Positions 4,837 to 21,556 are shown, counted from the stretch's first letter. The stretch is 64,000 nucleotides of DNA from Actinomycetota bacterium (GCA_016717115.1 JADKGE010000003.1:21037-85036); one strand, 5' to 3'. Numbers and translations: made by a program. The notes: a model not told the origin generated them from the sequence alone.

Positions 4837-5478
4837 TCACGTCGTCTTGTGTCGCCACTCGTCGGCGGTGGCCAGCCACGTGGCCCGGTCGGGGCACTCG
4901 GCCGTCTCGCGCCCGCCTGCGGGATCCACGAGAGTCACGCGAAAGACGGGTTCGCCGGTACTCGGCTGCATGGAGACGGATCGCACCAGTTCGGCGCCCG
5001 AGGCGATGTGGACCTCGACCCATTCCTGGGTGGGCGACATGCCCAGGGTGGCCGCGTCCGGCTCGGACACCGTGACCCAGGCCAGCCCCGCAGCTCGCGC
5101 CTCCTCGACCCTCGTGCTGGTGCGATCCAGCGCGGTGAGCATCAGCAGGGCCCGAAAGCGCTGCGACATGGCCGCATCGACCACCATGTCGAGGTCGAGG
5201 TCCGCGATGGGGAGGGCCTGGCGACTGGCGATCTCCCGGGCGTTGGCCACTGCGGCCGCGTGGCCGCTCTCGAGATCGGCGAGCGTCGAGTCGGCGAAGT
5301 AGGCCGTCAGTTGGCCGATGAGGGTGATGGCGCGCTGGTAGCGGTCGGCGTCGACCATGACGAGCGGGAAGACCTGGTCCTCGGCGGCTCGAAGGCGAGT
5401 CGCCAGCGCGCGGTACTCAGGGGGGATCGCCGACGACTGATCGGCTCCGAATGCGGGGGACGGCGGGATGTTGTTCAC
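4837..5478 (-). CDS. hypothetical protein heading the radical SAM-GNAT operon
   Basis: 213-aa ORF with very high GC3 throughout; I recognise no motif. The GTG start at 5478 lies inside the CACTATAGTG palindrome, so the start is uncertain. Confidence 0.55.
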   Translation of the reverse strand: MNNIPPSPAFGADQSSAIPPEYRALATRLRAAEDQVFPLVMVDADRYQRAITLIGQLTAYFADSTLADLESGHAAAVANAREIASRQALPIADLDLDMVVDAAMSQRFRALLMLTALDRTSTRVEEARAAGLAWVTVSEPDAATLGMSPTQEWVEVHIASGAELVRSVSMQPSTGEPVFRVTLVDPAGGRETAECPDRATWLATADEWRHKTT

Positions 5479-5556
5479 TATAGTGCTGGAACCCTCTCCT
5501 ATCCAGTACGGTTGACCACACCCTATAGGCGCGACTTGCAGTGAGGCGGTGATTCA

Positions 5557-6528
5557 GTGTCGACGACATCTGTCCTTCGCACGGTGGTCATCGCCCTCGG
5601 CGGCAATGCGATCACCGCCGAGGATCAATCCGGAACCTACGCCGAAATGCTGGTCAACTGCCAACGAATGGCGAAGGCGGTGAACGCACTGGTCGACGGC
5701 GGCTGGCGGGTCGTCGTGACCCATGGCAACGGCCCCCAGGTGGGCAACCTGTCCCTCCAGCAGGGTGCGGCCGAGCCCACCGTGCCCGCCCAGCCGCTGA
5801 GCTCGCTGGTGGCGATGACCCAGGGCTGGCTGGGCGGCCTCATCGAGCTGGCGCTGCGCAACACCGGCAGCGCCAGCATGCCGCCCGTCGTGTCGGTCGT
5901 GACGCACGTCGTCGTGGACCCGAGGGACCCCGGATTCCTGAAGTTGACGAAGCCGATCGGCCCCTTCTACGAGAAGGACGCGGCGCAGGCCAGGACGGAC
6001 GAGCTCGGGTGGCAGATGGTGGAGGACTCCGGCCGTGGGTACCGCCGGGTCGTCGCGTCGCCCCACCCCGTGTCGATGCTCGAATCAGACGCGATCGCCA
6101 CCCTCGTCGACAAGGGGTTCCTGGTCATCGCGGCGGGCGGTGGCGGCGTGCCCGTCATCAGGAGTCAAGGCCTCCTCCAGGGCGTCGATGCAGTGGTCGA
6201 CAAGGACCGCGCCGCGGCGATCCTGGCCGCTCAGCTGAAGGCCGACGCGCTGCTGCTGGTGACCGGCGTCGACTCCGTGCTCCTCGACTTCGGGAAGCCG
6301 ACACAGCGCGCACTCCACGATGTGGGAGCCGAGGAGATGCTCCGTCACAACGACGACGGGCAGTTCCCGTCCGGCAGCATGGGGCCCAAGGTGGAGGCGG
6401 CCGTGGAGTACCTCGGCCAGTGCAACGGCCAGGCCGTCATCACGTCGGTCGACAAGATGGTGCCGGCGCTCGAGGGGATGAAGGGCGTGGGCACGAGGAT
6501 TCGACGCACGACGGTGAGGGTTCCGTGA
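5557..6528 (+). CDS. arcC: carbamate kinase
   Basis: VVIALGGNAI...VVVTHGNGPQVGNL...; 323 aa, GTG start. Its stop overlaps the FdrA start (GTGA). Confidence 0.85.
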   Translation: MSTTSVLRTVVIALGGNAITAEDQSGTYAEMLVNCQRMAKAVNALVDGGWRVVVTHGNGPQVGNLSLQQGAAEPTVPAQPLSSLVAMTQGWLGGLIELALRNTGSASMPPVVSVVTHVVVDPRDPGFLKLTKPIGPFYEKDAAQARTDELGWQMVEDSGRGYRRVVASPHPVSMLESDAIATLVDKGFLVIAAGGGGVPVIRSQGLLQGVDAVVDKDRAAAILAAQLKADALLLVTGVDSVLLDFGKPTQRALHDVGAEEMLRHNDDGQFPSGSMGPKVEAAVEYLGQCNGQAVITSVDKMVPALEGMKGVGTRIRRTTVRVP

Positions 6529-8066
6529 CGCCTGTCCAGTCCGTCAAGCTGTTCAAGGACACCTACCTGGACTCCGTCCTCCAGCTCATGGGCACCCGTG
6601 CCATGGAGGGCATGTCCGGTGTCGGCTGGGCGGCGGTCGCCATGTCGACGGCCTCCAACGTCGAGACGCTCTCGGAGCGCGGCTTCCCGTCGACCGAGCT
6701 TGCCGGCGCGTCGCCCGGCGATCTGTTCATCGCGGTCGAGGCGGTCGATGAGCAGACGGCGGCCAGTGCCACCGGCGAGGCCGAAGTGGTCATGTTCTCT
6801 GCGAGGCAAGGGCGCGACACGAGCGGCCAGGCGGCGCCTCGCTCGCTGGAGGAGGCCCTGCGCCAGCAGCCGGCCTCGAACATCGCGGTCATCTCCGTGC
6901 CGGGCGACTATGCGGCCCTGGAGGCGCACAAGGCGCTGGCCAGCGGCCTGGACGTCCTGCTCTTCAGCGACAACGTCTCCCGCCAGGACGAGATCGAGCT
7001 GAAGGAGCACGCGCGGCTGCGCGATCGCCTGCTCATGGGCCCCGGCGCCGGGACGGCCATGCTCGGCGGCGTGGGACTGGCCTTCGCCAACGTCGTGCGC
7101 AGCGGACCGGTCGGCGTGATCGCCGCTGCGGGCACGGGCGCGCAGGAGGCCATGGCCCTGCTGGATCGCTGGGGTGTCGGCGTGTCCCATGTCATCGGCC
7201 TCGGTGGCCGCGACCTCAACGAGGACATCGGCGGGCGCATGGCGCGACAGGCCATCGCCTACCTGAAGGCCGACCCCGGCACGGAGGTCATCCTGTTCGT
7301 CTCGAAGCCGCCGGCTGCGGACGTCGCTCGCGACGTGCTGGCCCTGGCCGACGGCACGCCGCTGATCGCCGCCTTCATGGGGGTGGACACGGGCATGCCC
7401 GTGCCGACCGGCGTCGTCGTCACCGACACCCTCGAGGGAGGTGTGGTGAAGGCGCTGGAGGCGCTGGGCCGCGTGCCTCCGGACACCACGTCGCTCGTCG
7501 GCCCTTCGCTCGACGACGCGATCGCGCGGGTCGACGCCGACCGAACGACGATCCGTGGCCTGTACTCCGGTGGCACCCTCTGCTACGAGGCGCTCGTGCT
7601 GCTGGGCCGGCACTTCGGCGCGGTCTACTCGAACACCCCCGTCGACAAGACGCTGCGGACGCCCGCCCCGGAGCATTCGTCGATCCTCCTCGACCTCGGG
7701 GAGGAGGAGTACACCAAGGGGCGGCCGCATCCGATGATCGATCCGCAGGCGCGTGTCGAGATGCTCGAGGAGCTCGTCGACGACGACGACGTGGCGGTCA
7801 TCGTCATGGACGTCGTGCTCGGGTACGGCTCGCATCCCGACCCGGCGGGCGTGCTCGCTCCTGTCTGCGCGCGCATCATGGCCGACGGCGGCCCGCAGGT
7901 CGTCACATACGTCCTTGGCACAGACGGGGACCCGCAGCACTACCAGGCCCAGGTCGACGTGCTCACCGCCGTGGGATGCATCGTCACCGAGACCGCGGCG
8001 CGGGCCGCCCTCGCGTCGGCAGCCATCGCCGCGCGGAAGCCGGGCGTTGCTAGCGTCAGCCTGTGA
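6525..8066 (+). CDS. fdrA: FdrA family protein (succinyl-CoA-synthetase-alpha-like)
   Basis: GTG 6525 in frame within ORF 6009..8066. VKLFKDTYLDSVLQLM..., VISVPGDYAALEAHKALASGLDVLLFSDNV, GPGAGTAMLGGVGLAFAN, VIGLGGRDL. Confidence 0.8.
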   Translation: MTPVQSVKLFKDTYLDSVLQLMGTRAMEGMSGVGWAAVAMSTASNVETLSERGFPSTELAGASPGDLFIAVEAVDEQTAASATGEAEVVMFSARQGRDTSGQAAPRSLEEALRQQPASNIAVISVPGDYAALEAHKALASGLDVLLFSDNVSRQDEIELKEHARLRDRLLMGPGAGTAMLGGVGLAFANVVRSGPVGVIAAAGTGAQEAMALLDRWGVGVSHVIGLGGRDLNEDIGGRMARQAIAYLKADPGTEVILFVSKPPAADVARDVLALADGTPLIAAFMGVDTGMPVPTGVVVTDTLEGGVVKALEALGRVPPDTTSLVGPSLDDAIARVDADRTTIRGLYSGGTLCYEALVLLGRHFGAVYSNTPVDKTLRTPAPEHSSILLDLGEEEYTKGRPHPMIDPQARVEMLEELVDDDDVAVIVMDVVLGYGSHPDPAGVLAPVCARIMADGGPQVVTYVLGTDGDPQHYQAQVDVLTAVGCIVTETAARAALASAAIAARKPGVASVSL

Positions 8067-9229
8067 CAGACGCCCTGAAGGTCGCGGTCCTCACCTATTC
8101 GACCAAGCCCCGTGGTGGCGTCGTGCACTCGCTCAGCCTTGCCGAGGCCCTCGCCGCGCAGGGCGTCGACGTGCACCTCTTCGGTCTGGGGCCTGCCGAC
8201 GGCGAGTTCTTCCGGCCCACCACGGTCCCCTTCACGCTGTTCCCCGCTCCGGAGACCGCCGAGTCGCTCGAAGACAAGGTCTTCGCCTCGGTCGACGCCA
8301 TGGCGCTGGGGCTGAAGGGGCTGGACGCCGGGTTCGACATCCTCCATTCGCAGGACTGCATCTCCGCGCGGGCCGCCACCCGCGTGCGCGACGACGGCCT
8401 GAGCACGCCCGTCGTGCGGACCGTGCACCATGTCGACGACTTCACCACGCGGGCGCTCATCGACTGCCAGCGGCAGGCCATCCTCCAGCCCGATCACATC
8501 CTCGTGGTCAGCACGCGGTGGCAGGAGATCATGCTCGAGGAGTACGGGAGACGAGCCGACATCGTCCGCAACGGAGTCGATCCCGGCCGGTTCCCGGCGA
8601 TCACGGACGATAGGCGATCCGCACTGCGCGAGTCCGTGTCGGCGGGCGACCGTCGCGTGCTGCTCTCCATCGGAGGAATCGAGCCCCGCAAGGGGAGCAA
8701 CGAGCTGTTCGAGGCACTGGGCATCCTGAAGGAGCGCGGTCTGCGACCCGTCCTGGTCATGCTCGGCGGGCACTCGTTCCAGGACTATGCGGCGTACCGC
8801 GACGCGGCCCTCGCCCGCCTGCCGGAGCTCGGCCTCGAGCTGGGTGTGGACATCGTCCAGGTCGGCACGGTCGACGACGTGACGCTCGGGGAGTGGTACC
8901 GGGCGGCAGATGCTCTCGCGTTCCCGTCGGTCAAGGAGGGCTTCGGCCTGGTGGCACTGGAGGGCCAGGCGGCCGACCTGCCCGTGGTGGCCAGCAGCAT
9001 CCCGGTGTTCGCGGAATTCCTGACGGACGGCGAGAACGCGCTGCTCCCCGAGGTCGGCAACCCGATCGCGATCGCTGATGCGCTCGAGCGCGTGCTGACC
9101 GACTCCGACCTGCGAGCCCGACTCGTCGCGGGTGGCCGTGAGGTCGTGCCGAGATTCGGCTGGGACGCATCTGCCCGGCGACACATCGAGATCTACCGCG
9201 AGGTGCTGGCGGGTCGAGCTCAGTCCTGA
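8063..9229 (+). CDS. glycosyltransferase, MSMEG_0565 (Nit1C-associated) type
   Basis: VAVLTYSTKPRGGVVHSLSLAEALAAQGVDVHLF... with a GT4-like C-terminal half (EGFGLVALEG). GTG start overlaps the fdrA stop. Confidence 0.7.
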   Translation: MTDALKVAVLTYSTKPRGGVVHSLSLAEALAAQGVDVHLFGLGPADGEFFRPTTVPFTLFPAPETAESLEDKVFASVDAMALGLKGLDAGFDILHSQDCISARAATRVRDDGLSTPVVRTVHHVDDFTTRALIDCQRQAILQPDHILVVSTRWQEIMLEEYGRRADIVRNGVDPGRFPAITDDRRSALRESVSAGDRRVLLSIGGIEPRKGSNELFEALGILKERGLRPVLVMLGGHSFQDYAAYRDAALARLPELGLELGVDIVQVGTVDDVTLGEWYRAADALAFPSVKEGFGLVALEGQAADLPVVASSIPVFAEFLTDGENALLPEVGNPIAIADALERVLTDSDLRARLVAGGREVVPRFGWDASARRHIEIYREVLAGRAQS

Positions 9230-10224
9230 GCCCGCTCCAGCCCGGTGGCGGGAGTGTCCTGCGCGTCGATCAGGTGCCTGATCTCACCGTCCACGGCGAC
9301 GCTGATCACTCCCGTCTGGTCGATCACGCCCACCTTCGCTGCCGAGAGACCGGCGTCGACGAAGACGGAGATGCACTCCTGTGTCGTCTCCGGATCGCAC
9401 GTCAGCAGGAAGCCGAAGCAGGGGAAGCAGTTGAACCACTGGCCGAGGGGTACGTCGCGGGGGGTCGGGACGGCGTCCACGTCGATGATCACCCCGAACG
9501 ATCCCCACTCGAGCAGCATCGCGAGCGAGCCGACGAGGCCGGCCATGCTGATGTCCTTGGCTCCCCGGGCCAGTCCGCGGCTGGCGATCGCGGAGAACAG
9601 GCGCACGTCGTCCCCGAGTCGATCACCCCGCTCGTCGAAGGACGCGAAGAACGGGAAGTCCGAGCGCATGCGGCCATCGGTGCACGCTACGACGACGAGG
9701 TCCTGGCCGCTCGCGACATTCGTGGACGACAGCACGGTGTCTGCGTGACCCACGGCGAAGGCCGAGAGAGACGCCGGACCGTCGGTGATGGTGAGGTGAC
9801 CGCCGACGATGGGAACACGGTAGAGGGCGGATGCGTACCGCATGCCCTCCAGCACACTGCGCGCTGTCTGCCGCGAGGCGACCACGGTGTCGACGATGGC
9901 CAGGGGAAGGCCGCCCATGGCAGCAACGTCGTTGACGTTCGCGAGGACCGCCGCGATCCCCGCTCCGTAGGGATCGGCCGCCACGAACGGCGGCCAGATG
10001 GCCTCTCCGCAGGCGATCACGCTGGCACCAGCCACGGACACCACTGCGCCGTCGTCGCCGGGACCCTCGACCCAGCCCGACTCTCCGAGCACGTCACTGA
10101 CGAGCCGGATGTCGCGTTTCGCGGCGATCGACGGGTTGGAGAGCACCGCCTGGGCTATCTCGTCGAGAAGCTGCGCTGCAGAGTGCTGACCGCCCACGAC
10201 GCTCCGTTCCAGGGTGTCGGCCAC
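9220..10224 (-). CDS. AIR-synthase-related (PurM-like) protein, sll0787 type
   Basis: 334 aa. GPGDDGAVV, ANVNDVAAMGG, VPIVGGHLT, AKDISMAGLVGSL are PurM-superfamily patterns. Convergent 10-nt overlap with the glycosyltransferase. Confidence 0.7.
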   Translation of the reverse strand: MADTLERSVVGGQHSAAQLLDEIAQAVLSNPSIAAKRDIRLVSDVLGESGWVEGPGDDGAVVSVAGASVIACGEAIWPPFVAADPYGAGIAAVLANVNDVAAMGGLPLAIVDTVVASRQTARSVLEGMRYASALYRVPIVGGHLTITDGPASLSAFAVGHADTVLSSTNVASGQDLVVVACTDGRMRSDFPFFASFDERGDRLGDDVRLFSAIASRGLARGAKDISMAGLVGSLAMLLEWGSFGVIIDVDAVPTPRDVPLGQWFNCFPCFGFLLTCDPETTQECISVFVDAGLSAAKVGVIDQTGVISVAVDGEIRHLIDAQDTPATGLERAQD

Positions 10225-10292
10225 GACGAAGGCGACCGACGAAGTTCTTTCCTATAGTGAATCTTCTCCTAGGATAGTCTAGGATCCTGCGC

Positions 10293-11072
10293 GTGAAGCC
10301 GGATTTCCTGAGACTCCCCGAGGTGCCCGCCAAGCCTCGCACCGTGGGCGTCACGCACATGCTGGACAAGGGAATCCCGCTCAACACCACCGCCGCGATC
10401 CTGCGTTCCTACGCCGATCACATGGACTTCTGGAAGTTCGGCTGGGGCACCGCCTATGTGGAGAGCCAGCTGGCCGACAAGCTCGCCGTCCTGCACGAGC
10501 ACGACGTGGTCGCCTGTCTCGGTGGCACGCTCATGGAGATCGCGTGGGCGCAGAACGCGGTGGACGAATGCCTGGCCTGGGCTCGCCGTGTCGGGTTCCG
10601 CGCGGTCGAGGTGTCGCGGGGCAGCGTGCCGATGCCCCTGTCTGCCAAGGCGATGATCATCCGGCAGGCAGCACCGCACTTCACCGTGCTCGCCGAGACC
10701 GGATACAAGAGCGCCGAGCGGCTCATGTCTCTCGATGAGTGGTCGGCGGAGATCGTCGAGGACCTCGACAGCGGCGCCGAGTACATCGTCACGGAGGGCC
10801 GCGAGAGCGGCACGGTCGGCGTCTACGACCATGACGGCGAGCCCAAGCCCGAGGTCGTTCGCGCCGTGATCGAGGCCGCTGGTCTGGAACGCGCACTCTT
10901 CGAGGCCCCCCGCAAGAGCCAGCAGGCCTGGTTCATCAACGAGTTCGGACCCGACGTCAATCTCGGCAACATCCCGCCCGACGACGCGCTGGCCCTGCAC
11001 ACCCTGCGGCTGGGCCTTCGCGCGGACACGATCAGCATCACCACCACGACCGTCGAGTCAGTTCGACTGTAG
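10293..11072 (+). CDS. phosphosulfolactate synthase (ComA) family protein
   Basis: LRLPEVPAKPRTVGVTHMLDKG...DFWKFGWGTAYV...VEVSRGSV...YIVTEGRESGTVGVYD matches the ComA family pattern. GTG start. Confidence 0.7.
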   Translation: MKPDFLRLPEVPAKPRTVGVTHMLDKGIPLNTTAAILRSYADHMDFWKFGWGTAYVESQLADKLAVLHEHDVVACLGGTLMEIAWAQNAVDECLAWARRVGFRAVEVSRGSVPMPLSAKAMIIRQAAPHFTVLAETGYKSAERLMSLDEWSAEIVEDLDSGAEYIVTEGRESGTVGVYDHDGEPKPEVVRAVIEAAGLERALFEAPRKSQQAWFINEFGPDVNLGNIPPDDALALHTLRLGLRADTISITTTTVESVRL

Positions 11073-11118
11073 GTGTGGGCACCTTGGCCCCGCTCGGGAT
11101 CCTCGTCGTGGAACTGCC

Positions 11119-12450
11119 ATGACTGTGCGTCTCACCGAGTCCGCGATGTACCGGCACGCCTGGACCACTCCGTCGCTCGACGCGATCCTCGCGGAGGACG
11201 CACGACTGCGCACCTGGCTGCGCATCCTCGCTGTGCTGGCCGACTGCCAGGCACGGCTGGGGATCATCCCCGGGGCCGCGGCGACGGCGATCGCCGAGGA
11301 TGCCCAGGCGGATCGACTCGATCTCGAGGCGATCGCTGCGCGAACCCGGGAGTCGTCGCACAGCGTGCTGGGCCTGATCGAGGGGTTGCAGGCGACGCTC
11401 CCCGACCAGGCGCGGGAGTACGTGTACTACGGCATCACGGTCCAGGACCTCACGGACACCTGGTTCGGCCTGGTCATGCGCGACGTGACCGCAATCCTGC
11501 GAGCTGACCTCGTGCGCATCGAGACTGCCTGCCTGCGACTGGCCCACGAGCACCGCGCCACGGTCATGGCGGGACGTACGCACGGACAGGTCGGATCGCC
11601 CATCACCTTCGGCCTCAAGGCCGCGACGTGGGCCGACGAGACGGCGCGCAACATCGAACGGCTCGACGAGGGCGTGCGTCGCTGGGCGGTCGTGCAGCTG
11701 GCCGGGTCGACGGGGGGCCTGGCGTTCTTCGGCGAGCAGGGTGCCGAACTGAGGGCGCTGTTCAGCGGGGCCCTCGGCCTCGGCGACCCGGGCGTCTCCT
11801 GGACGTCGACGCGCGACCGCACCGCGGAGTTCGGCGCCACCCTGAGCCTGGTGACCGGGGCGCTGGCGCGCATCGGGAACGAGATCTACGAGCTCCAACG
11901 GCCGGAGATCGCCGAGCTCAGCGAACCCTTCAACAGTGCGGTCGTGGGCAGCATCACGATGCCGCACAAGCGCAACCCCGAGTACTGCGAGCACCTGGAC
12001 ACCCTGGCCCGGGTCGCGCGTGCAGCGGCCGGGGGCCTGCTGGAGGGAACGGCCGCGAGCCACGAGAGGGACGGCCGCGCCTGGAAGGCGGAGTGGGCCT
12101 TCCTGCCCGACGTGGCGTTGGCCGCCGGCACGTCGGCATCGCTCGGCGCCGAACTCCTCGAGGGTCTCGTGGTCCACCCGGAGGCCATGCTGCGCAACCT
12201 GGGCGACGACGGTTCATGGGCCTCGGAGCAGGTCCTCGTCCAGCTGTCGCGGCGGCTGGGCAAGCATCGTGCCCAGGCGCTGCTGCAGTCGGCCTTCGCG
12301 TCCGACGGGTCCGACGTGGCCACGACCATCGCGGTCGCCGCCGGAGTCGACGTCGCCGACGTGCAAGCCTGGATGGATGTCCCGAACACGACGACGGCGA
12401 CCGCCATGGTCGACGGCGTGGTCGCCCGGCTGGGCGGGCCATCCCGGTGA
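11119..12450 (+). CDS. fumarate-lyase superfamily enzyme (adenylosuccinate lyase / 3-carboxymuconate cycloisomerase-like)
   Basis: 443 aa. Signature loop GSITMPHKRNPEYCEH. RTHGQVGSPITFG. Confidence 0.75.
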   Translation: MTVRLTESAMYRHAWTTPSLDAILAEDARLRTWLRILAVLADCQARLGIIPGAAATAIAEDAQADRLDLEAIAARTRESSHSVLGLIEGLQATLPDQAREYVYYGITVQDLTDTWFGLVMRDVTAILRADLVRIETACLRLAHEHRATVMAGRTHGQVGSPITFGLKAATWADETARNIERLDEGVRRWAVVQLAGSTGGLAFFGEQGAELRALFSGALGLGDPGVSWTSTRDRTAEFGATLSLVTGALARIGNEIYELQRPEIAELSEPFNSAVVGSITMPHKRNPEYCEHLDTLARVARAAAGGLLEGTAASHERDGRAWKAEWAFLPDVALAAGTSASLGAELLEGLVVHPEAMLRNLGDDGSWASEQVLVQLSRRLGKHRAQALLQSAFASDGSDVATTIAVAAGVDVADVQAWMDVPNTTTATAMVDGVVARLGGPSR

Positions 12451-13409
12451 ACCCGACTGCCGCCTTCTCGCGCTACTCGCTGGGGCAGTTCCCCACCCCG
12501 CTGCATCGCCTGCACCGTCTGGAGCAGGCGCTCGGTGGCGGTCACCTGATGGTCAAGCGCGACGACCTCGCCGGCTTCGCCGTGGCCGGCAACAAGACTC
12601 GGCCGCTGGAGTTCCTCATCGGTGATGCCCTGACGTGCGGTGCCGAGGTCGTCGTCAGCGGAGGCGCACCCAAGTCCAACTTCGCTTCCGCGCTGGCGGC
12701 CGCGACTCGATCGGCGGGGCTCGAGTGCGAGCTGATGGTCCCGGGGGGCAAGCTCGACGACCCCCCGGTGCCCTTGGCCATGGCCATCGCGAGCGGCGCC
12801 ACCTTGCGCTTCACGGGCGGTGATCGGGAGGAGCTCGACACGGCGATCGACGAACGAGTCCGGGAGCTGGCTGCCGCGGGCCGACGCGCGTACGCCGTGC
12901 CCCGAGGCGGAGCCTGCGCTGTCGGAGCACTGGGCTTCGCCAATGCCGCCTGCGAGCTCGCAGAGCAGGGGGTGCCCGACGATGCCGCCATCGTGCTGCC
13001 CGTCGGCTCAGGCGCCTCCGTCGCCGGACTGATCGCCGGGCGAGCGGCCGTCGGGGCGGGATGGTCCGTGGCAGGGGTGTCCGTGAGTCGGCCCATCGAC
13101 GAGATGCACGAGCAGACGTCCTCCATCGCCGCTGCCTGCAGCCGGAGCATGCTCACTGCCGAGCCGCACGATGCACTGCTCGTCGATGCCACTGTCCCGG
13201 GCATGGCCGCCGTGACGGAGGGCGAGCGCGTCGATGCGCTGCTGGCCTTCGACACGGAGGGCCTGCTCTTCGACCCCTCCTACGGGGTGAAGGCGCTCCA
13301 CCACGCGCTGACGATGATCAGGCAGGGTTCGACCGAACCGATCATCCTGTGGCACACGGGCGGCCTGACGTCGGCGATTCCGTTGATCGCACGCGAAGGT
13401 GCGTCATGA
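12447..13409 (+). CDS. PLP-dependent enzyme, ACC deaminase / D-cysteine desulfhydrase / CuyA family
   Basis: GTG 12447 (GTGA overlap with the previous stop), in frame within ORF 11628..13409. FPTPLHRL...VKRDDLAGFAVAGNKTRPLEFL contains the PLP-lysine motif. Confidence 0.75.
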   Translation: MNPTAAFSRYSLGQFPTPLHRLHRLEQALGGGHLMVKRDDLAGFAVAGNKTRPLEFLIGDALTCGAEVVVSGGAPKSNFASALAAATRSAGLECELMVPGGKLDDPPVPLAMAIASGATLRFTGGDREELDTAIDERVRELAAAGRRAYAVPRGGACAVGALGFANAACELAEQGVPDDAAIVLPVGSGASVAGLIAGRAAVGAGWSVAGVSVSRPIDEMHEQTSSIAAACSRSMLTAEPHDALLVDATVPGMAAVTEGERVDALLAFDTEGLLFDPSYGVKALHHALTMIRQGSTEPIILWHTGGLTSAIPLIAREGAS

Positions 13410-14884
13410 CCATCGACGGCGCCGACGAGCTGGCACGGGCCGGCTACGCGTGGGAGATCGCCGACGCGCCGCTGCTGCACGAGCCGCTGACTCTCGCGGA
13501 CCTCGCCCACGTGCTCGAGCTGGTCCGCATCAAGGCGATCCCGCCCGCGTCGGCTCGCGCGCTGGCAGGTGAGCTCCTTGCCATGCTCGCCGCCCCGCCC
13601 GAGTCCGTCGACTACTCGCCGGCCTTCGGGGAGATGTACTCCTCGCGCGAGCACCACCTCGCGAACCGGATAGGGGACGATGCGGGCTGGCTGCACTCGG
13701 GCAGGACCAGGCGCGAGGCGATGCGGATCGCCTATCGGATCCTGGTGCGGCGTCATGTCGTCGACCTGGTCGGCGGGGCCGCGGGGCTCGCCGAGGCGCT
13801 GTGCGACCAGGCCGCCGAGGACCTCGACAGCGTGATGCCCGACTACACCTACCTGCAGCCGGCCGAGCCGACCACGTTCGGCCACTACCTCGCGTCGTTC
13901 GTCGATCCGGTGCTCCGCGACGGAGGGCGGCTCGAGCGGGAGTTCGCCGACGTCAATGCCAGTCCCATGGGCTCCGGCGCAGCGAGCGGGTCCGCCCTCC
14001 TGCGTGAGCGCACCGTGGCCGGCAACGACCTCGGCTTCGACGGCGCCATCGACCACGTCCGCGATGCCATGTGGCAGAGCGACCCGTTCACCCACGTGCT
14101 CCTCGCCGCCACCACGCTTGTCCTCGGTCAGGACAAGCTGGCAGAGGACCTCGAGGTCTTCGCCAGTCGCGAGTTCGACTTCGTCCAGCTCGGTGACGGA
14201 CTGGTGCGTCCGAGCGTGCTGATGCCGCAGAAGCGCAACCCGTACGCGCTCACCGTCATCCGGGGGATGTCGGGAATCCTCATCGGGCGCGCGACCGGGC
14301 AGCTGGCCGTGTCCAAGTCGCCGTCCGCACGGAGCGATCTGTACATCTACGCGTATGGCGAGGTGCCCCGCGCGCTCGATCTGGCGACGCGCACGACGGA
14401 GCTGTCGACAGCAGTCGTGCGCACGCTGCGGGTCAGCGCCTCGCGCATGAGCGCGGCGCTGGTCGGCCGCCACACCGGTGCCGCCGAGACGGCCGCCTAC
14501 CTGGTGCGCGAGTTCGGAGTCGACTACCGCACGGCTCACTCGATCGTCTCGCAGGCGGTGCGTGCGGCCGGAGCGGACGCGCGAGAGGTCACGGCTGCCG
14601 ACATCGCGACGGCGGCGCGGACCGCGGGCATCGCGCCCGTCGTCGTCACGGACGACCGGCTGCGTGCGCTGGCCGACCCGCGAGGCGTGGTCGCATCGCA
14701 CGACGGACTGGGCGGCTCGGCGGCGGAGTCGATGACGGCGTTCATCGCGGAGCGGCGAATGCGCGCCGAGGAGCTGGCCACATGGGCGCAGGGCACGAGA
14801 CGCCGCCTCGACGACGGTGAGGCGAGCGTGGTCCGACGGGCACGGGAACTAGTGGGCGAGTACGACGACAAGGAGATCTCATGA
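13406..14884 (+). CDS. fumarate-lyase superfamily enzyme (argininosuccinate lyase-like)
   Basis: ATG 13406 (ATGA overlap), in frame within ORF 13061..14884. YLQPAEPTTFGHY, signature SVLMPQKRNPYAL. Confidence 0.75.
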   Translation: MTIDGADELARAGYAWEIADAPLLHEPLTLADLAHVLELVRIKAIPPASARALAGELLAMLAAPPESVDYSPAFGEMYSSREHHLANRIGDDAGWLHSGRTRREAMRIAYRILVRRHVVDLVGGAAGLAEALCDQAAEDLDSVMPDYTYLQPAEPTTFGHYLASFVDPVLRDGGRLEREFADVNASPMGSGAASGSALLRERTVAGNDLGFDGAIDHVRDAMWQSDPFTHVLLAATTLVLGQDKLAEDLEVFASREFDFVQLGDGLVRPSVLMPQKRNPYALTVIRGMSGILIGRATGQLAVSKSPSARSDLYIYAYGEVPRALDLATRTTELSTAVVRTLRVSASRMSAALVGRHTGAAETAAYLVREFGVDYRTAHSIVSQAVRAAGADAREVTAADIATAARTAGIAPVVVTDDRLRALADPRGVVASHDGLGGSAAESMTAFIAERRMRAEELATWAQGTRRRLDDGEASVVRRARELVGEYDDKEIS

Positions 14885-16296
14885 GTCCAGTACGGGAACT
14901 GCCGAGCGAGGCGCACGTGATCAACCTCGGCCTCCCGGACTTCGCCGCCGCCGTCGCCGCGCAGGGGGCGGAGGCCATCCAGGTCGACTGGAGCCTTCCG
15001 GCCGGCGGAGATCCCACCAGCGTCGCGGCCCTCACTGCGCTGTACGGCGTGCGGTCGATCTCCATCGACGACGCCAACGCCGAGATCGTGCGTCGCCTCG
15101 ACAAGGGCACGCCGTTCCTCACCGGCGTGGCTCCGGCCGGGGAGGTCGTTCCGGGCCTGGGCGACCGCATGCTGCTGCATGCCGGTCCGCCCATCGCCTA
15201 CGAGCAGGTGTGCGATCCGATGCGCCGGTCGATGCGCGCCGCCGTCGTGGCGGAGGGGTGGGCCGCAGACCTCGGTGCCGCCGAGGAGCTGCTCGCCCGA
15301 GGGGACATCGCGCTCGACGCCGCCAACGACCATGCGACGGTCGTTCCCATGGTGACGGCGCTGGGCCCGACCACACCGGTCTGGATCGCGGACAACGCCG
15401 ATGCCGGCACGCGCGGCTTCGCGCCGGTCAACCAGGGCCCCGGTGACGTGGCGTGGTTCGGTCGCGAGAGCCAGGGGGCGATCGACCGACTGGTGTTCCT
15501 GCGCGACGTGGTCCAGCCGAGATTCGCCCGGATCCTGGACGAGGTGGGTCCGATCGACATCATGTCGCTGGCGAGCCAGGGCGTGCAGATGGGCGACGAC
15601 GTGCACATCCGGACCCAGGCAACGACGAACCTGTTGATCCGCAACGTCCTTCCCGCGATCTCCCGGCTCGGAAAGGACCCGGAGTCGGTGGCGATGTCCG
15701 AGTTCCTGGCCACGTCGCACCTGTTCTTCCTCACCATCGCGATGGCCGGCGCGAAGTCGCTGACGCTCGCGGCCGAGCAGGTCGCGGGAGGAACCGTCGT
15801 CACCACGATGGCCCGCAACGGCACCACGTTCGGTGTGAAGCTCGCCGGCTCTGCGACCTGGCACGTGTGCGACGCGCCGCCCGTCGGCGATGCCCTCTAC
15901 TACTCGGGCTACAGCGAGTCGGACGCGGCGAAGGATGTCGGCGACAGCGCCGTCCTCGAGCTGGTCGGCCTCGGTGGCGCTGCCGCGGCCGCCTCGCCGG
16001 CGGTGGCGGGGTTCCTCGGCGGCTCGATGGACGACGCGGTCCGTGCGACCAGCGAGATGATCACCATCTGCCTGTCCGAGAGCACCCGGTTCAAGCTGCC
16101 CATCCTCGGCTTCCGGGGAAGCCCGCTCGGAGTGGATGTCCGACGAGTCGTCGAGACCGGGGTGCGACCGAAGGTGACCACCGGCGTCCTGCACGTCAGC
16201 TCAGGTGTCGGCCAGATCGGCGCCGGGGTCGCGACCGCACCGCTCGAGGGGTTCCGTGAGGCGCTCCTCCTGCTCGCGGCCGGTCCTCGGGACTGA
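14881..16296 (+). CDS. DUF1116 (YlbE-like) protein
   Basis: 471 aa with ATGA overlap to the previous gene. NDHATVVPMVTALGP...MARNGTTFGVKL...ELVGLGGAAAAASPAV is the pattern I associate with YlbE/DUF1116. Confidence 0.65.
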   Translation: MSPVRELPSEAHVINLGLPDFAAAVAAQGAEAIQVDWSLPAGGDPTSVAALTALYGVRSISIDDANAEIVRRLDKGTPFLTGVAPAGEVVPGLGDRMLLHAGPPIAYEQVCDPMRRSMRAAVVAEGWAADLGAAEELLARGDIALDAANDHATVVPMVTALGPTTPVWIADNADAGTRGFAPVNQGPGDVAWFGRESQGAIDRLVFLRDVVQPRFARILDEVGPIDIMSLASQGVQMGDDVHIRTQATTNLLIRNVLPAISRLGKDPESVAMSEFLATSHLFFLTIAMAGAKSLTLAAEQVAGGTVVTTMARNGTTFGVKLAGSATWHVCDAPPVGDALYYSGYSESDAAKDVGDSAVLELVGLGGAAAAASPAVAGFLGGSMDDAVRATSEMITICLSESTRFKLPILGFRGSPLGVDVRRVVETGVRPKVTTGVLHVSSGVGQIGAGVATAPLEGFREALLLLAAGPRD

Positions 16297-16301
16297 CCTC
16301 G

Positions 16302-17132
16302 ATGCCGACCCCCGGTCGCGTGCTCGGCATCGGCGATGTCGCCTTGCGCGCGCTGGCATCGGGTCGCGAGGGCGAGGTCGTGGCGGTGTTCTCACGTGCC
16401 GCATACCTGGACCTCGCCGGAGACATCGCCGTGCTCGTCCTCGGGGACGTCCCGAACGGACCCCTTCATGTGCGACTCGACCGACTGCCGCGACTTCGAC
16501 GCGGCGCCCGGGTCCGTTGCCGCTCAGGCGTGGTCGCGATCGAGGAGCACAGATGGCTCACTCCGTCGGCGGCGTGGCGGCCCGAGCCTCCTGTTGACGT
16601 CGTGTCGGCCGAGCCGATCGTCAGCGCCGTCGTCCGTCATCGACCCGTGCTCGACATGGGGACCGGCAGCGTGGTCGACATCGACGGCTGGCTGGTGCCG
16701 TTGCTGGCTCATGGCGACGTCGCGGGAGCCTGCGCACGCCTCTTCGGGCGAGGGGCGGGCCTGACTCCTGCGGGCGACGACGTGGCCGCCGGCATCCTGC
16801 TCGTCGAGTGCCTGTCGGGCTCCGCTGATCGAACGAGCCTGGGTCTCCTCGCGACCCGTGCGCCGACGCACGCGATCTCCCGTGCCTTCCTGCGAGCTGC
16901 GGCCGAGGGCCAGTGCATCGAGCCCGTCCACACGCTGCTGCGGGCAGCCAGTGCCGGCGACGAGGGCGTGGCCACCGACGCGGTGGAGCAGCTCAGCCGC
17001 GTCGGTCACACGTCGGGATTGGACCTCGCGGCCGGAGTCCGTGCCGCGCTGGTCGCCTTGGCCGCGCGGGCCGATTCCGCCGACCGCACCCCGCGCGACA
17101 CGATCAGCATCCACGCCCACAAGGTGCCGTAG
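16302..17132 (+). CDS. DUF2877 (YlbF-like) protein
   Basis: 276 aa. GRGAGLTPAGDDVAAGILL and VGHTSGLDL motifs. The last 127 nt overlap the convergent NiCoT gene. Confidence 0.65.
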   Translation: MPTPGRVLGIGDVALRALASGREGEVVAVFSRAAYLDLAGDIAVLVLGDVPNGPLHVRLDRLPRLRRGARVRCRSGVVAIEEHRWLTPSAAWRPEPPVDVVSAEPIVSAVVRHRPVLDMGTGSVVDIDGWLVPLLAHGDVAGACARLFGRGAGLTPAGDDVAAGILLVECLSGSADRTSLGLLATRAPTHAISRAFLRAAAEGQCIEPVHTLLRAASAGDEGVATDAVEQLSRVGHTSGLDLAAGVRAALVALAARADSADRTPRDTISIHAHKVP

Positions 17133-18088
17133 GCGACCACGATCACGTAGCCGACGAGCTCGAAGTGCTGGCTCACCTCGGCCAGCGGCGCGAGGAACGC
17201 GATCCCGAACTGGCTGACGAGGAGCCCCGCCGCGTAGATGAGGCCCACCGTGATGGCGATGCATGCGGTCAGCAGCGTCATCACCATGTTGAACGTGAGG
17301 CGTCGTCGGGGCTGCGTTCGATTGGAACCGTAGACGCTGATCATCAGCAGTGAGTTGAGGGTGTCGAACAGGGTCATGCCCGCGGCGAAGAGGATCGGCA
17401 GGGCAAGCAAGGACATCAGGGGCATCGTCCCCGAGACGGCCGCAGTGGCCGACAGGCCGAGCAGGGCGATCTCCGATGCCGTCTCCAGTCCGAGCCCGAA
17501 GACGAAGCCGATGGGGAACATCCGCCAGCTCGCCGTCACCGACGACTGCAGCCGGCTGCCGAAGAGTCGGCTGAGCACGCTCCTGGCATTGAGGATCTCG
17601 TCGATCTGCTCGTTGCTCAGGTCGACGCCGCGGTGGGCCTGCCGGGCCGTCCAGACGCGACGGAGCACGCGCAGGTTGAGGACGCCGACGAAGAGGAGGA
17701 AGGATGCTGCGACGAGTGCCGAGAAGGTGCCGCCGATCCCGCGCACCGCAGGGATGACGGTCTCGCTCGCGGAGGCGCTGGCCACGGCCACGACCACGAA
17801 GAGGACGAACACGACGCTCGAGTGGCCGAGGGCGAAGAACAGGCCGAGTCCGGTCGGACGCTGACCCTGGCGAACGAGCAGCCGAGTGCAGTCGTCGATC
17901 GTGGCGAGGTGGTCGGCGTCGAACGCATGACGCACGCCGAGAACGTAGGCCAGGGTGCCTGCCCCGACGTAGGCGGCCGTCGCACTCCCGGCGCTGGCCG
18001 AGTACGCGTACAGACCCCAGCCCGCGAGGTTCAGCGCGATGACGACCGCGATGACCAGGCGGATCTGCCGGCGGCCCTGGGTTCTCAT
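17006..18088 (-). CDS. NiCoT (HoxN/HupN/NixA) nickel/cobalt permease
   Basis: Signature RHAFDADHLATIDD and FFALGHSSVV. Multiple TM segments. ATG 18088 preceded by GAGGAG (the ORF track start 18157 is less likely). Confidence 0.85.
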   Translation of the reverse strand: MRTQGRRQIRLVIAVVIALNLAGWGLYAYSASAGSATAAYVGAGTLAYVLGVRHAFDADHLATIDDCTRLLVRQGQRPTGLGLFFALGHSSVVFVLFVVVAVASASASETVIPAVRGIGGTFSALVAASFLLFVGVLNLRVLRRVWTARQAHRGVDLSNEQIDEILNARSVLSRLFGSRLQSSVTASWRMFPIGFVFGLGLETASEIALLGLSATAAVSGTMPLMSLLALPILFAAGMTLFDTLNSLLMISVYGSNRTQPRRRLTFNMVMTLLTACIAITVGLIYAAGLLVSQFGIAFLAPLAEVSQHFELVGYVIVVAYGTLWAWMLIVSRGVRSAESARAAKATSAARTPAARSNPDV

Positions 18089-18162
18089 CCCGATCTCCTC
18101 TGCCGGCAATGACCTGAACGCACTCGCGAGGGCTGTCATAGTAAGGCACACGCTCATTCACT

Positions 18163-18606
18163 ATGGGTGATTCGCAGACTCCGATGACGGGCTGGAGGGA
18201 CGACGTGGCCGACGACAGGACCGTGAGCGCGCGGTGGCTCGGTGGGTACCAGGTCGACGTCGTCACGGGAGACTTCACGGTCCGCGTCGACGAACCCGAG
18301 CGCGTCGGTGGCACAGACACCGGCCCGCAGCCGACCGACCTGCTGCTCGCGTCGGTCGCCTCGTGCTTCGTGCTCTCGCTGGCCTGGGCTGCCAAGAAGC
18401 GCGAGATGGAGGTGCCTGCCATCTCCGTCGAGGTGACCGGGACCTACGAGGGCCCGCGCTTCTCCTCGATGGTGATCGCGGTGTCGATGCCGGTGCCCGA
18501 CGACGTGGCAGAGCGACTGATCCAGTCAGCCGAGCGGGTCTGCTACGTGACGAACACGCTCAAGCGCGCGCCGGACATCACGGTGCGGCGCGTCGACGCG
18601 ATCTAG
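18163..18606 (+). CDS. OsmC/Ohr family protein
   Basis: 147 aa. GTDTGPQPTDLLLASVASCFVLSL...AERVCYVTNTL, with the two conserved Cys regions of OsmC. Confidence 0.75.
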   Translation: MGDSQTPMTGWRDDVADDRTVSARWLGGYQVDVVTGDFTVRVDEPERVGGTDTGPQPTDLLLASVASCFVLSLAWAAKKREMEVPAISVEVTGTYEGPRFSSMVIAVSMPVPDDVAERLIQSAERVCYVTNTLKRAPDITVRRVDAI

Positions 18607-19232
18607 CCGTTGCGCAGGGCCACCCACACGACCTCGGCGGGCTTCTTGCTCGCGTTCTCCCAGTGGTGGGGGACATCGCCGGAGAAGTGCAGGGAGTCAC
18701 CCTCGGTGAGGACGAAGTCCTGCTCGCCGACGTGGAAACGCACCTGACCACGGAGCACGTGGACCAGCTCCTCGCCCGGATGCTTGAGCGGCTTCTCCCC
18801 GCTGTTCGCACCGGGCGCCATGCTGGCCACCGCTGCCGCCGTCTGGAACTGCCGGTAGGAGCCGGTGATCCCGGACAGGGACAGACCGGTGTGCGGAGTG
18901 AACACGGCACGCCGCTCATCGGCGGCGGTGAAGTGGACGGGCTCCGGGTGCGACTCCTCCTCCTGCACGAAGTAGCTGACGGGGACGCCGAGGGCGGTAC
19001 CGAGCTTGAGGAGTGTCGTGATGGTGGGCACCATGCCGTTGCGTTCCATCTTGTGGATGGCCGCCGCAGACACGTCGCTGATGACGGCCAGCTGCTGGAG
19101 CGACAGCCCCTGCGCCTTGCGGAGCTCGGCGATCTTGGGACCCACCATGCTGACGATCTCTTCGACCTGGAGGGCTTGGGGCGCGGGCGCCGTCACCGCT
19201 CTCGGCTTGCGTACGGCGGCTTTGGTGGCCAA
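18603..19232 (-). CDS. XRE-family HTH regulator with C-terminal cupin domain
   Basis: HTH IAELRKAQGLSLQQLAVISDVSAAAIHKMERN. Cupin GEELVHVLRG...EGDSLHF. TTG 19232 has GGAGGA 5 nt upstream. The track start 19370 and ATG 19148 are alternatives. Confidence 0.75.
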   Translation of the reverse strand: MATKAAVRKPRAVTAPAPQALQVEEIVSMVGPKIAELRKAQGLSLQQLAVISDVSAAAIHKMERNGMVPTITTLLKLGTALGVPVSYFVQEEESHPEPVHFTAADERRAVFTPHTGLSLSGITGSYRQFQTAAAVASMAPGANSGEKPLKHPGEELVHVLRGQVRFHVGEQDFVLTEGDSLHFSGDVPHHWENASKKPAEVVWVALRNG

Positions 19233-19426
19233 CGGATCCTCCGGCGGGTGCGCTCTTCGTGCGTCCGGCCAGACTACCGTCCGACCGCGCGGGTTCGGCG
19301 TCGAAGCCGCGACGCGCAGTGCCTGACGGGTCTCGCCGAACCGGTTGACGGGCAACCGTGCTTCCAGCATAGTGAACGTCTAGTCATTCATCGTGTACGC
19401 GAGTACGCAACGGGAGGGACAGCCGC

Positions 19427-20770
19427 GTGGCCCAAAGGGTAGTGGTGATCGGTGGTGGCGGAGGCGGACTTGGCGCAGCCGGTGGGGCCAAGGCGGTCGA
19501 TCCCTCGGCCCAGGTCACCGTCTATACCGAGTACGAGGACGTCGCCTACAGCCCGTGTGGCATCCCGTTCGTCCATGGCAAGGAGATCCCGAGCTTCGAG
19601 GCGCTCTTCCTGGCGGAGAAGCAGGCCTACGTGGACGCAGGCATCGACGTGCACTATGAGACGCGCGTGTCGTCGATCGACCGGGCGAACAGGACGATCA
19701 CCGTCGACGGCGAGGGAACGGTCGGCTACGACTCCCTGGTGATCTCGACGGGTTTCGTCTACGCGGACCCGGGGGTACCGGGTGCGGGCCTTGACGGCCT
19801 GTACTACGTGAAGAACATCCGTGACGCCATGGAGTGGGACAAGCGACTGGACACGGTCAAGAAGGCCGTCGTCGTCGAGGCCGGACCGCTCGGCATCGAG
19901 ATGGTCACAGCCCTGGCACACCGTGGCATCGAGACCCACGTCATCGATCCCAACCCGTGGTGCCTGGGCGAACTGCTCGACCCCGACATCGCCGAGGTCG
20001 TGCAGGAGTCGTGGACCGAGCTCGGCATCACCATGCACTGGAACACCACGCTGCTGGGCTTCGTGGACAACGGCAGCGGATCGGTCGGCGGCGTCTCGAC
20101 GTCGGGCGGCACGATCGACTGCGACCTGGTCGTCGTCGCGACCCACAAGCAGCCGAACAACGCTCTCGCGGTGGCGGCGGGCATCGCCATCGGCACTACC
20201 GGTGGGGTGATCGTCGACGAGACGATGAAGACCTCCGATCCCAGCATCTGGGCCTGCGGGGACGTCTGCGAGATCCCGCACGGCAACGCATCCCTCCCGC
20301 TCCAGGGGCTGACCGGCAGCCATGCGTACGCGCAGGGCAAGGTCGCCGGCGCCAACGCGGCCGGTGGCAGCCGCGTCTACAACTCGGTGTACATCCCGTG
20401 GGGCATGGTCGCGGGCAAGTGGATGATCGGCGGGGCCGCCTTCGGAGAGGTCGCTGCCGATGCGCTGGGCATGCCCTACGTCCTTGGCGTCGCCGAGGGC
20501 ATCTCGCGTGCTCGCTACTACCCCGGCGTGAAGAAGGTGAAGGTCAAGCTGCTCGCCGAGCCGGGAACCCTTCGCCTGATCGGTGCCCAGATGATCGGTG
20601 GCGAGGGGATCAAGGAGAGAGCCGACTTCCTCGGTGTAGCCGTCAAGAAGGGCCTGACACTCTTCGACCTGGCCACGATGGAGAACGTGTACTCGCCCCC
20701 GATCGGCGCGCTGAACGAGCCGATCGCCGTGGCTGCGCAGAACGGCGTTGCGGCGTCCCGGAGCGCCTGA
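19427..20770 (+). CDS. pyridine nucleotide-disulfide oxidoreductase (CoA-disulfide reductase / NADH oxidase-like)
   Basis: VVVIGGGGGGLGAAG dinucleotide fold. Single redox Cys in VAYSPCGIPF. 447 aa. GTG start preceded by GGGAGGG. Confidence 0.75.
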   Translation: MAQRVVVIGGGGGGLGAAGGAKAVDPSAQVTVYTEYEDVAYSPCGIPFVHGKEIPSFEALFLAEKQAYVDAGIDVHYETRVSSIDRANRTITVDGEGTVGYDSLVISTGFVYADPGVPGAGLDGLYYVKNIRDAMEWDKRLDTVKKAVVVEAGPLGIEMVTALAHRGIETHVIDPNPWCLGELLDPDIAEVVQESWTELGITMHWNTTLLGFVDNGSGSVGGVSTSGGTIDCDLVVVATHKQPNNALAVAAGIAIGTTGGVIVDETMKTSDPSIWACGDVCEIPHGNASLPLQGLTGSHAYAQGKVAGANAAGGSRVYNSVYIPWGMVAGKWMIGGAAFGEVAADALGMPYVLGVAEGISRARYYPGVKKVKVKLLAEPGTLRLIGAQMIGGEGIKERADFLGVAVKKGLTLFDLATMENVYSPPIGALNEPIAVAAQNGVAASRSA

Positions 20771-20771
20771 C

Positions 20772-21023
20772 ATGACGAAGCTGGCCACGTGGCTCCGGAC
20801 GAATTCCCAGCACTACCTGTTGCGTGACTCCCAGGCGCGTATAGCCAGGAAGTACGGCATCGCCCCACCGGACACCAGGGGTTCGTTCTTCTGGACCAAG
20901 GTGTTCGTCCCGGTGTACCGGGTGCTCCCGTGGGGGCTGCGTTCCAGCGTGATGGCAGCCATGCCGGGCAGCCATCGCAAGCGTTGGTCGAAACAAGCTC
21001 CGCCCGCTGGTGCGGCGGTTTAG
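20772..21023 (+). CDS. 83-aa conserved hypothetical protein
   Basis: ATG 20772 lies 1 nt after the oxidoreductase stop (in frame in ORF 20748..21023): MTKLATWLRTNSQHYLLRDSQARIARKYG...FFWTKVFVPVYRVLPW. Confidence 0.5.
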   Translation: MTKLATWLRTNSQHYLLRDSQARIARKYGIAPPDTRGSFFWTKVFVPVYRVLPWGLRSSVMAAMPGSHRKRWSKQAPPAGAAV

Positions 21024-21551: not shown

Positions 21552-21556
21552 CCTCA

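Follow-up and report, generated by a model that had tools for sequence, protein, structure and literature searches.

Homologues of the bacterial coenzyme M biosynthesis genes in a nitrogen- and nitrile-related gene cluster of Actinomycetota

Bacterial biosynthesis of coenzyme M (CoM, 2-mercaptoethanesulfonate) has been worked out in Xanthobacter autotrophicus Py2, where the xcbABCDE products carry out a five-step pathway; XcbC takes the phosphate off phosphosulfolactate, XcbD joins cysteine to sulfoacrylate, and XcbA is an iron-sulfur protein (PMC9457059). Nocardioides sp. JS614 and Mycolicibacterium chubuense NBB4 carry similar gene sets on their alkene/vinyl chloride plasmids, encoding comA, a 309-aa hypothetical protein, and ADL-like, pyridoxal phosphate (PLP) and ASL-like enzymes (PMC8727900). 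The 309-aa protein belongs to the XcbA family and is probably the 308-aa "xcbF1" of the same paper. According to a 2024 paper, no CoM biosynthesis genes are known outside methanogenic archaea and alkene-utilising aerobic bacteria (PMC11507031). Two other described systems bear on the present work: the Nit1C cluster (the cyanide-assimilation nitrilase cluster of Pseudomonas; sll0783-0787; MSMEG_0565-0572), and AllFGH and AllK of Escherichia coli, which are an oxamic transcarbamylase and a catabolic carbamate kinase, respectively (PMC11326118, PMC9843812). Here, we analyse a 64,000-nt stretch of DNA from an Actinomycetota bacterium (GCA_016717115.1, JADKGE010000003.1:21037-85036; hereafter the window, with positions counted from its first letter). 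Its genes at 10293-14884 are homologues of XcbB (ComA), XcbD, XcbE and XcbC of bacterial CoM biosynthesis. Their occurrence without an alkene-degrading enzyme, amid nitrogen-scavenging and nitrile genes, suggests a second, undescribed job for CoM.

The characterised X. autotrophicus Py2 set and the JS614 plasmid set, both taken from public records, served as reference genes. The window resembles Xanthobacter in holding all five enzyme families, including XcbA, and in sharing the XcbC and XcbD substitutions and the PLP lysine described below, at 35-40% identity (XcbB 35%, XcbC 36%, XcbD 40%, XcbE 35%). All five enzymes are encoded within 14 kb, and each is present once in the genome. The differences lie in arrangement and surroundings. 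The Xanthobacter order is A-B-C-D-E, whereas the window has B-D-E-C with A displaced; the alkene monooxygenase, epoxyalkane:CoM transferase and 2-ketopropyl-CoM genes that neighbour the Xanthobacter set are all missing beside the window operon; a tyrosine of XcbE is replaced; and the window operon continues into allG and allH. The gene order matches that of the JS614 and NBB4 plasmids, where a CoADR-family flavoprotein, only 31% identical to that of the window, is also found nearby. Identity to the JS614 proteins ranges from 37 to 63% (XcbB 46%, XcbC 46%, XcbD 50%, XcbE 37%, XcbA 63%), and NBB4, compared for XcbD only, gave 49-53%. However, the JS614 and NBB4 clusters are plasmid-borne and lie beside etnE and etnABCD, whereas the neighbours of the window set are Nit1C-type, AllFGH, carbamate kinase and nitrile hydratase genes, in a genome without etnE.

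The operon is a run of six plus-strand genes at 10293-17132, with gene calls and junctions read straight from the sequence. The first gene, xcbB (10293-11072), is followed after a 46-nt gap by xcbD (11119-12450), which shares a GTGA overlap with xcbE (12447-13409); xcbE in turn shares an ATGA overlap with xcbC (13406-14884). The stop of xcbC overlaps the start of an allG-like gene (DUF1116, 14881-16296), again as ATGA, and an allH-like gene (DUF2877, 16302-17132) comes 5 nt later. Pfam scores in this order are 270 bits for ComA (PF02679), 108 for Lyase_1, 113 for PALP, 114 for Lyase_1 with ASL_C2, 201 for AllG (PF06545) and 78 for AllH (PF11392). The motifs GSITMPHKRNPEYCEH, GNKTRPLEFL and LMPQKRNPYAL are seen in xcbD, xcbE and xcbC, respectively, and the bias in G+C at third codon positions, about 0.82-0.89 for the cleanly scorable frames in this 67% GC DNA, is typical of real genes. 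The sequence-only reading of this DNA had described six tightly coupled genes at 10293-17132, which is borne out by the re-called genes, junctions and motifs. It had also placed the first four in the ComA, PurB-like lyase, fold-type II PLP and ArgH-like lyase families, in agreement with Pfam, while overlooking the published xcb pathway and the XcbA gene at 23325-24254.

Metagenomes provide independent copies of this DNA. In 11 studies that sampled freshwater, wastewater or activated sludge, metagenomes contain the stretch near-intact, at 95% identity or more and with few differences. In run X2, a contig covers 11350-15825 with 5 differences, and in run X1, possibly the source sample, another covers 8144-12932 with none. 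The junction between xcbB and xcbD is bridged by a single listed contig, which comes from X1. Many short contig "joints" were discarded as noise from other organisms, as their sides measured just 20-24 letters. No RNA runs were listed as holding the stretch, from which nothing is concluded about expression.

XcbB is a full-length ComA homologue: the PF02679 match (cut-off 25.2 bits) spans positions 2-243 of 243, and the protein can be aligned over its whole length with two solved ComA/YitD structures, 1u83 and 1qwg (YitD and the M. jannaschii enzyme). The alignment keeps the lysine equivalent to Lys137, which in ComA is the proposed catalytic acid. The score against the archaeal equivalog model TIGR03849 is 238.5, below its cut-off of 280. 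For XcbC, XcbD and XcbE, no solved structures were found for comparison.

The product of xcbD, an adenylosuccinate-lyase-like enzyme predicted to be a 3-sulfopropionylcysteine synthase, is best matched among NCBIfam models by the XcbD model NF052536; the runner-up, an adenylosuccinate lyase subfamily, scores 364 bits and trails by 179 bits. It carries the XcbD motifs TVQD, GRTHGQ, GSITMPHKRNPE and HERDGRxWKxEW, at which the genome's own PurB differs in the alignment. A species-representative genome collection holds at least 592 relatives of XcbD, of which the best 80, at 46-65% identity, were examined together with their loci. Four tallied XcbD columns are invariant or nearly so in these 80, irrespective of genomic context; HERDGRxWKxEW was seen in a 13-row alignment only. 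Against the PurB model TIGR00928 the protein scores 236 bits (cut-off 326.2), and its catalytic loop reads GSIT rather than GSS, while a separate PurB-like paralogue with the GSS loop is encoded on contig C2.

A similar picture holds for XcbC, the argininosuccinate-lyase-like enzyme predicted to convert phosphosulfolactate to sulfoacrylate. Its best NCBIfam match is the XcbC model NF052535, and it falls below the ArgH model TIGR00838 (223.9 bits, cut-off 279.5). Alignment with the Xanthobacter enzyme, made in this analysis, gave the XcbC-specific residues: GRTRREA in place of GRSRND, TYLQ, in which Tyr replaces the ArgH catalytic His, an R-x-S-V loop (R-x-S-V/I in the general XcbC pattern) before LMPQKRNPYA, and PSARSD. 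These substitutions are common to the Xanthobacter and JS614 proteins and invariant in 66 relatives from either context, whereas the genome's own ArgH paralogue differs. The ArgH-like paralogue on contig C12 is closer to ArgH and has the ArgH motifs intact. As for XcbE, a fold-type II PLP enzyme whose best match is the XcbE model NF052537, the PLP lysine (GNK) and a PRGGA motif are invariant among relatives.

We took the chemistry of the individual steps from the Xanthobacter enzymes and infer the product in this organism from homology, hallmark residues and synteny. XcbB would combine sulfite and phosphoenolpyruvate into phosphosulfolactate, from which XcbC would eliminate phosphate to give sulfoacrylate. 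XcbD would then join L-cysteine, through its thiol, to the double bond of sulfoacrylate, yielding 3-sulfopropionylcysteine, and XcbE would use PLP to turn this into sulfoethanethioaldehyde. Finally, XcbA (23325-24254, minus strand) would reduce sulfoethanethioaldehyde to CoM. Diverged but recognisable, the xcbB-D-E-C set together with xcbA most likely makes CoM, and we consider this product probable.

Several observations weigh against this product assignment. The scores against the XcbD, XcbE and XcbC models are 542.5 bits (cut-off 600), 202 bits (cut-off 450) and 405.2 bits (cut-off 575), respectively; score alone does not place any of the three in its family, because all lie below these narrow NCBIfam cut-offs. 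For XcbE the lead over the L-cysteate sulfo-lyase model CuyA (NF052482, 180.4 bits, cut-off 450) is just 22 bits, so that scores alone separate the two poorly and the protein is assigned to XcbE because of its position in the operon: xcbE lies between xcbD and xcbC here, as it does in JS614 and at 63 of the 80 related loci. In addition, the window protein has Met (VPGMAAV) in place of the GxGYG tyrosine of the ACC-deaminase/D-cysteine-desulfhydrase family. This tyrosine is kept in Xanthobacter, JS614 and all 11 XcbE proteins with a residue at that column that come from loci linked to an epoxyalkane:CoM transferase, whereas XcbE from Nit1C-type surroundings has mostly Phe or His, with Asp or Met also occurring. 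Since the tyrosine is replaced, the XcbE step may differ in detail. Furthermore, xcbA lies outside the operon, just 46 nt (11073-11118) separating xcbB and xcbD, and no CoM-using enzyme is known in this 91% complete genome.

It had been proposed in the sequence-only reading that the two lyases form a succino-lyase pair completing aspartate-dependent aminations, that the PLP enzyme is CuyA-like and releases sulfite, and that the operon makes or degrades a sulfonated or aspartate-aminated molecule. The superfamily placement of both lyases was right, and CuyA is indeed the runner-up model for XcbE at 180 bits. Nevertheless, we find sulfonate degradation or an aspartate-aminated product very improbable. 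XcbC has Tyr for the ArgH catalytic His and RRE for the RND of the succinyl-binding motif, XcbD has GSIT for GSS, both lyases score under the ArgH and PurB cut-offs, and the genome has separate ArgH-like and PurB-like paralogues. The active-site comparison thus upheld the ComA assignment, through the alignment with 1u83 and 1qwg, and not the expectation for the lyases, which have XcbC and XcbD residues where ArgH and PurB signatures were looked for. The PLP enzyme is XcbE by position, small though its margin is (202 against 180 bits), and the genes are positional orthologues of the JS614 and Xanthobacter xcb genes. A matching ATP-dependent ligase, whose lack had been remarked on, was dropped from consideration: none is present, and an aspartate ligase is not required because XcbC eliminates phosphate and XcbD adds cysteine, in reactions that use no ligase (PMC9457059). 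Of the product once proposed, the sulfonated part is very probable and the aspartate-aminated part falls away with the assignment of the lyases to the XcbC and XcbD types.

The displaced xcbA, which would encode the final reduction to CoM, lies at 23325-24254 on the minus strand, 8.4 kb from the operon and convergent on a nitrile hydratase operon. It is the sole copy in the genome and encodes a 309-aa Cys-rich protein with five cysteines conserved in all relatives, scoring 392.6 bits against NF052538 (cut-off 150) and 282 bits against DUF7714. Nearly all related loci carry xcbA between xcbB and xcbD, where the window has none. The window XcbA shares 55-66% identity with its counterparts in transferase-linked loci, and just 34-47% with the XcbA proteins encoded inside the operons of loci in its own context. 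In the XcbA tree it is placed in the transferase lineage, within a group of 20 rows that has a support of 100 in the Shimodaira-Hasegawa-like approximate likelihood ratio test (SH-aLRT), unlike the window XcbD, which groups with Nit1C-context loci (L001-L004). It thus appears that the in-operon xcbA was replaced by a copy from the transferase-linked (alkene) lineage. If an alkene-lineage XcbA can stand in here, the last step, and hence the product, would be the same in both contexts; the sequence comparison suggests that both are shared.

The 46-nt gap where nearly all relatives hold xcbA could also be taken to mean that the loss of this gene broke the pathway, leaving a decaying remnant, and that the remote xcbA is a leftover of a lost alkene island. 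This is hard to credit. The five genes are intact, their catalytic residues are conserved and translational coupling has been kept, and the stretch is held at 95% identity or more by metagenomes of the 11 studies. Moreover, no other alkene-type xcb remnants were found near the displaced xcbA, in the window or in the genome, and no transferase remnant either.

Two side observations concern xcbA and its surroundings. The stretch at 24268-25321 beside it is a putative IS110 scar according to the first reading, a neighbourhood that would speak for the remnant reading. In the Xanthobacter pXAUT01 record (L081, 3504-4568), an unannotated gap before xcbB holds an XcbA-like frame that switches midway, which reflects either a frameshift in that copy or an error in the deposited sequence.

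The genome (3.88 Mb, 91% complete) holds no homologue of the epoxyalkane:CoM transferase (best tblastn E-value 4), whereas the same query finds EtnE of JS614 with an E-value of 3.5e-109. The operon has no tie to the metabolism of alkenes or epoxides. The wider family tells a similar story. The 80 best XcbD relatives are nearly all from Actinomycetota, and their loci customarily follow the order xcbB-xcbA-xcbD-xcbE-xcbC; B-(A)-D-E-C is also the order of JS614. The four-gene order thus recurs in other genomes, as the first reading had proposed to check, usually with xcbA inserted. A transferase was scored within 10 kb of each locus. The context of the window, with an AIR-synthase-like (AIRS) gene upstream and allG normally directly after xcbC, is shared by 47 loci, all without a transferase; these often add carbamate kinase-FdrA-glycosyltransferase, radical SAM, OsmC, XRE, CoADR-91aa-MSMEG_0572 and nitrile hydratase genes. 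Six more, from Pseudonocardiaceae and relatives, have xcb with OsmC, XRE and CoADR-91aa-MSMEG_0572 only, and again no transferase. The other loci are without any of these context genes: a transferase 47-78% identical to XecA is present in 15 and was not seen in 12, several of which are on short contigs.

In the XcbD tree, Xanthobacter, JS614 and 21 non-Nit1C loci, including all 15 transferase-linked ones, form a 23-row clade (SH-aLRT 94) nested inside the wider family that includes the window protein; the root, set with one distant outgroup (the genome's own PurB), is unsure. Among 401 Actinomycetota genomes sampled evenly and independently of these loci, XcbA scored above cut-off in 11, this genome included. 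Three of the other ten have a transferase and seven do not, and in each of these seven an AllG orthologue shares contig and strand with xcbA, at a distance of 4.8-5.7 kb. The two xcb contexts are separate, and the transferase-free one is the commoner among the relatives examined. In five related genomes with no nitrile hydratase seen at the locus, no Nit1C-type nitrilase scored above cut-off or could be shown to adjoin xcb.

The same context raises the possibility that the early chemistry is as in Xanthobacter and the end product is not free CoM. Intermediates would then be diverted at or after XcbE and elaborated or carried by AllG/AllH/FdrA together with the radical SAM, AIRS and GT4 proteins, giving another sulfonated thiol or a conjugate. 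Such a diversion is consistent with the GxGYG tyrosine of XcbE, which differs systematically between contexts, with the failure of all three Xcb proteins to reach their equivalog-type models, and with a glycosyltransferase that weakly matches MshA and BshA, makers of low-molecular-weight thiols. It is also consistent with the overlap of xcbC with allG, an AllG homologue being present in 42 of the 80 loci and directly after xcbC in all mapped Nit-context loci except L072. However, the full complement of five Xcb enzymes, with the terminal reductase XcbA among them, is kept in the Nit1C-context loci (75 of the 80 loci), and the service of an alkene-lineage XcbA in the window would be hard to explain with a different XcbE product. 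Six Pseudonocardia loci, moreover, carry xcb and CoADR-MSMEG_0572 without AllG or Nit1C genes within 10 kb. We therefore regard both a different end product and its elaboration by these neighbours as possible, if rather unlikely, and retain CoM as the probable product.

A short sequence connects the operon to its neighbours. The 8-mer ATAGTGAA occurs four times in the 64 kb against 0.16 copies expected, a count that none of 100 shuffles reached, and each copy sits in a promoter region of the cluster: upstream of the carbamate kinase gene (5474-5481), in the divergent AIRS/xcbB promoter region (10254-10261, plus strand), between the NiCoT and OsmC genes (18157-18164) and between the XRE and CoADR genes (19369-19376). 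At the carbamate kinase and CoADR sites it is immediately preceded by TTCCAGC. The 8-mer also occurs 21 times in 17 related loci, which come from several orders; 19 of these copies precede a match to carbamate kinase, CoADR, xcbB or radical SAM by no more than 150 bp, and one copy adjoins xcbA in L019. This placement, in the window and in its relatives, points to the cluster being one regulon marked by ATAGTGAA. At a guess, the XRE-cupin protein might be the regulator acting at these sites. The earlier suggestion that the operon is functionally tied to the surrounding nitrile/Nit1C block is upheld: the linkage is conserved in 47 of the 80 loci, and a promoter motif is common to both.

Upstream of the operon, an MSMEG_0568 radical SAM gene (3532-4725, minus strand) passes its NCBIfam cut-off. 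It is followed on the plus strand by genes for carbamate kinase (5557-6528; TIGR00746 343 bits, cut-off 358; NF009007 310 bits against 266, passing), an FdrA/AllF-like protein (6525-8066; NF004760 402 bits, cut-off 433) and an MSMEG_0565 Nit1C-type glycosyltransferase (8063-9229; TIGR04047 354 bits, passing). The sll0787-type AIRS gene (9220-10224, minus strand; TIGR04049 263 bits, cut-off 321) is divergent from xcbB. Beyond allH lie genes for a NiCoT transporter (17006-18157, minus strand), OsmC (18163-18606), an XRE-cupin regulator (18603-19370, minus strand) and then, all on the plus strand, a CoADR-like flavoprotein (19427-20770), a 91-aa protein with no Pfam or NCBIfam match (20748-21023), an MSMEG_0572-family protein that passes its NCBIfam cut-off (21063-21551), and the beta and alpha subunits of a cobalt nitrile hydratase with accessory genes (21567-23295), the alpha subunit carrying VCTLCSCY.

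Many of these genes are linked to xcb in the 80 related loci: the AIRS gene upstream of xcbB in 40, carbamate kinase and FdrA in 26-27, the CoADR-to-nitrile hydratase genes (19427-23295) in 19-35, and the 91-aa gene between CoADR and MSMEG_0572 in 29. A small conserved gene at 4837-5478 (minus strand) has no Pfam or NCBIfam match. The allH-like open reading frame and the convergent NiCoT frame overlap by 127 nt (17006-17132); the AllH match ends earlier in relatives, so that the end called for allH or for NiCoT may need revision. A single-Cys flavoprotein of the CoADR family accompanies xcb in both contexts (19427-20770 in the window, 5757-7127 in L082), the two proteins being only 31% identical. 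This flavoprotein is a candidate CoM-disulfide or persulfide reductase.

Compared with the Nit1C cluster, the window has the glycosyltransferase, the radical SAM protein and the MSMEG_0572 protein above their cut-offs, and an AIRS gene whose best match, below cut-off, is the sll0787 model. It is without the Nit1C nitrilase, the GNAT protein and the MSMEG_0569 flavoprotein; the cobalt nitrile hydratase and the CoADR-like flavoprotein occupy comparable places, and the xcb and AllFGH/carbamate kinase genes are inserted. The families of E. coli AllFGH and AllK are all four represented. In contrast to E. coli, the set is split over two operons, allG and allH are coupled to xcbC, and allantoin genes were not seen.

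In this setting, the xcb operon would be read through into allG and allH and, apparently, co-regulated with carbamate kinase-FdrA, OsmC and the operon of the CoADR-like, MSMEG_0572 and nitrile hydratase genes, and the CoADR-like flavoprotein may keep the redox state of the thiol. Given the lack of an alkene link, the read-through into allG and allH and the apparent co-regulation, the thiol is most likely a cofactor or carrier of the nitrogen- and nitrile-related system. One speculative scheme, built from gene content and known reaction types, casts CoM as a sulfur carrier in an energy-conserving route from the C-N bond of cyanide or nitriles to ammonia; in this specific form we think it decidedly unlikely. 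CoM thiocyanate (CoM-S-CN) would form, for example from CoM disulfide and cyanide, and the cobalt nitrile hydratase would convert it to S-carbamoyl-CoM. FdrA/AllG/AllH would then move the carbamoyl group to phosphate, regenerating CoM by phosphorolysis, and carbamate kinase would yield ATP, ammonia and CO2, while the CoADR-like flavoprotein and OsmC might handle the thiol/disulfide state. Such a cycle, if true, would explain why a thiol-cofactor operon runs into allG and allH, and why a nitrile hydratase is found where Nit1C clusters hold a nitrilase.

Taken alone, the four genes are ordinary members of a published pathway, and the interest lies in their conserved, unpublished context. In the full-text literature, of which coverage is incomplete, no paper linking xcb with Nit1C, AllFGH or nitrile hydratase was found. 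Specific to the window are the lost in-operon xcbA with its alkene-lineage stand-in and the presence of ATAGTGAA at four promoter regions. The metagenomes of 11 studies hold the organism, so the system is no single-isolate rarity. To our knowledge, the epoxyalkane:CoM transferase is the only bacterial CoM-dependent entry enzyme. Genomes without the transferase nevertheless carry the complete xcb set in dozens of Actinomycetota species, spread over two classes and several orders, and there it is tied to genes of nitrogen starvation, carbamoyl phosphate and nitrile chemistry. Cultured carriers of the cluster include Nonomuraea mangrovi, Actinomycetospora succinea and Nocardioides guangzhouensis. 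This conserved context implies that in Actinomycetota CoM, or a compound very close to it, serves a nitrogen- and nitrile-related system. If CoM is made in these genomes, this would be its third biological role, and a testable cofactor would be at hand for the Nit1C-type cluster, which has long gone unexplained.

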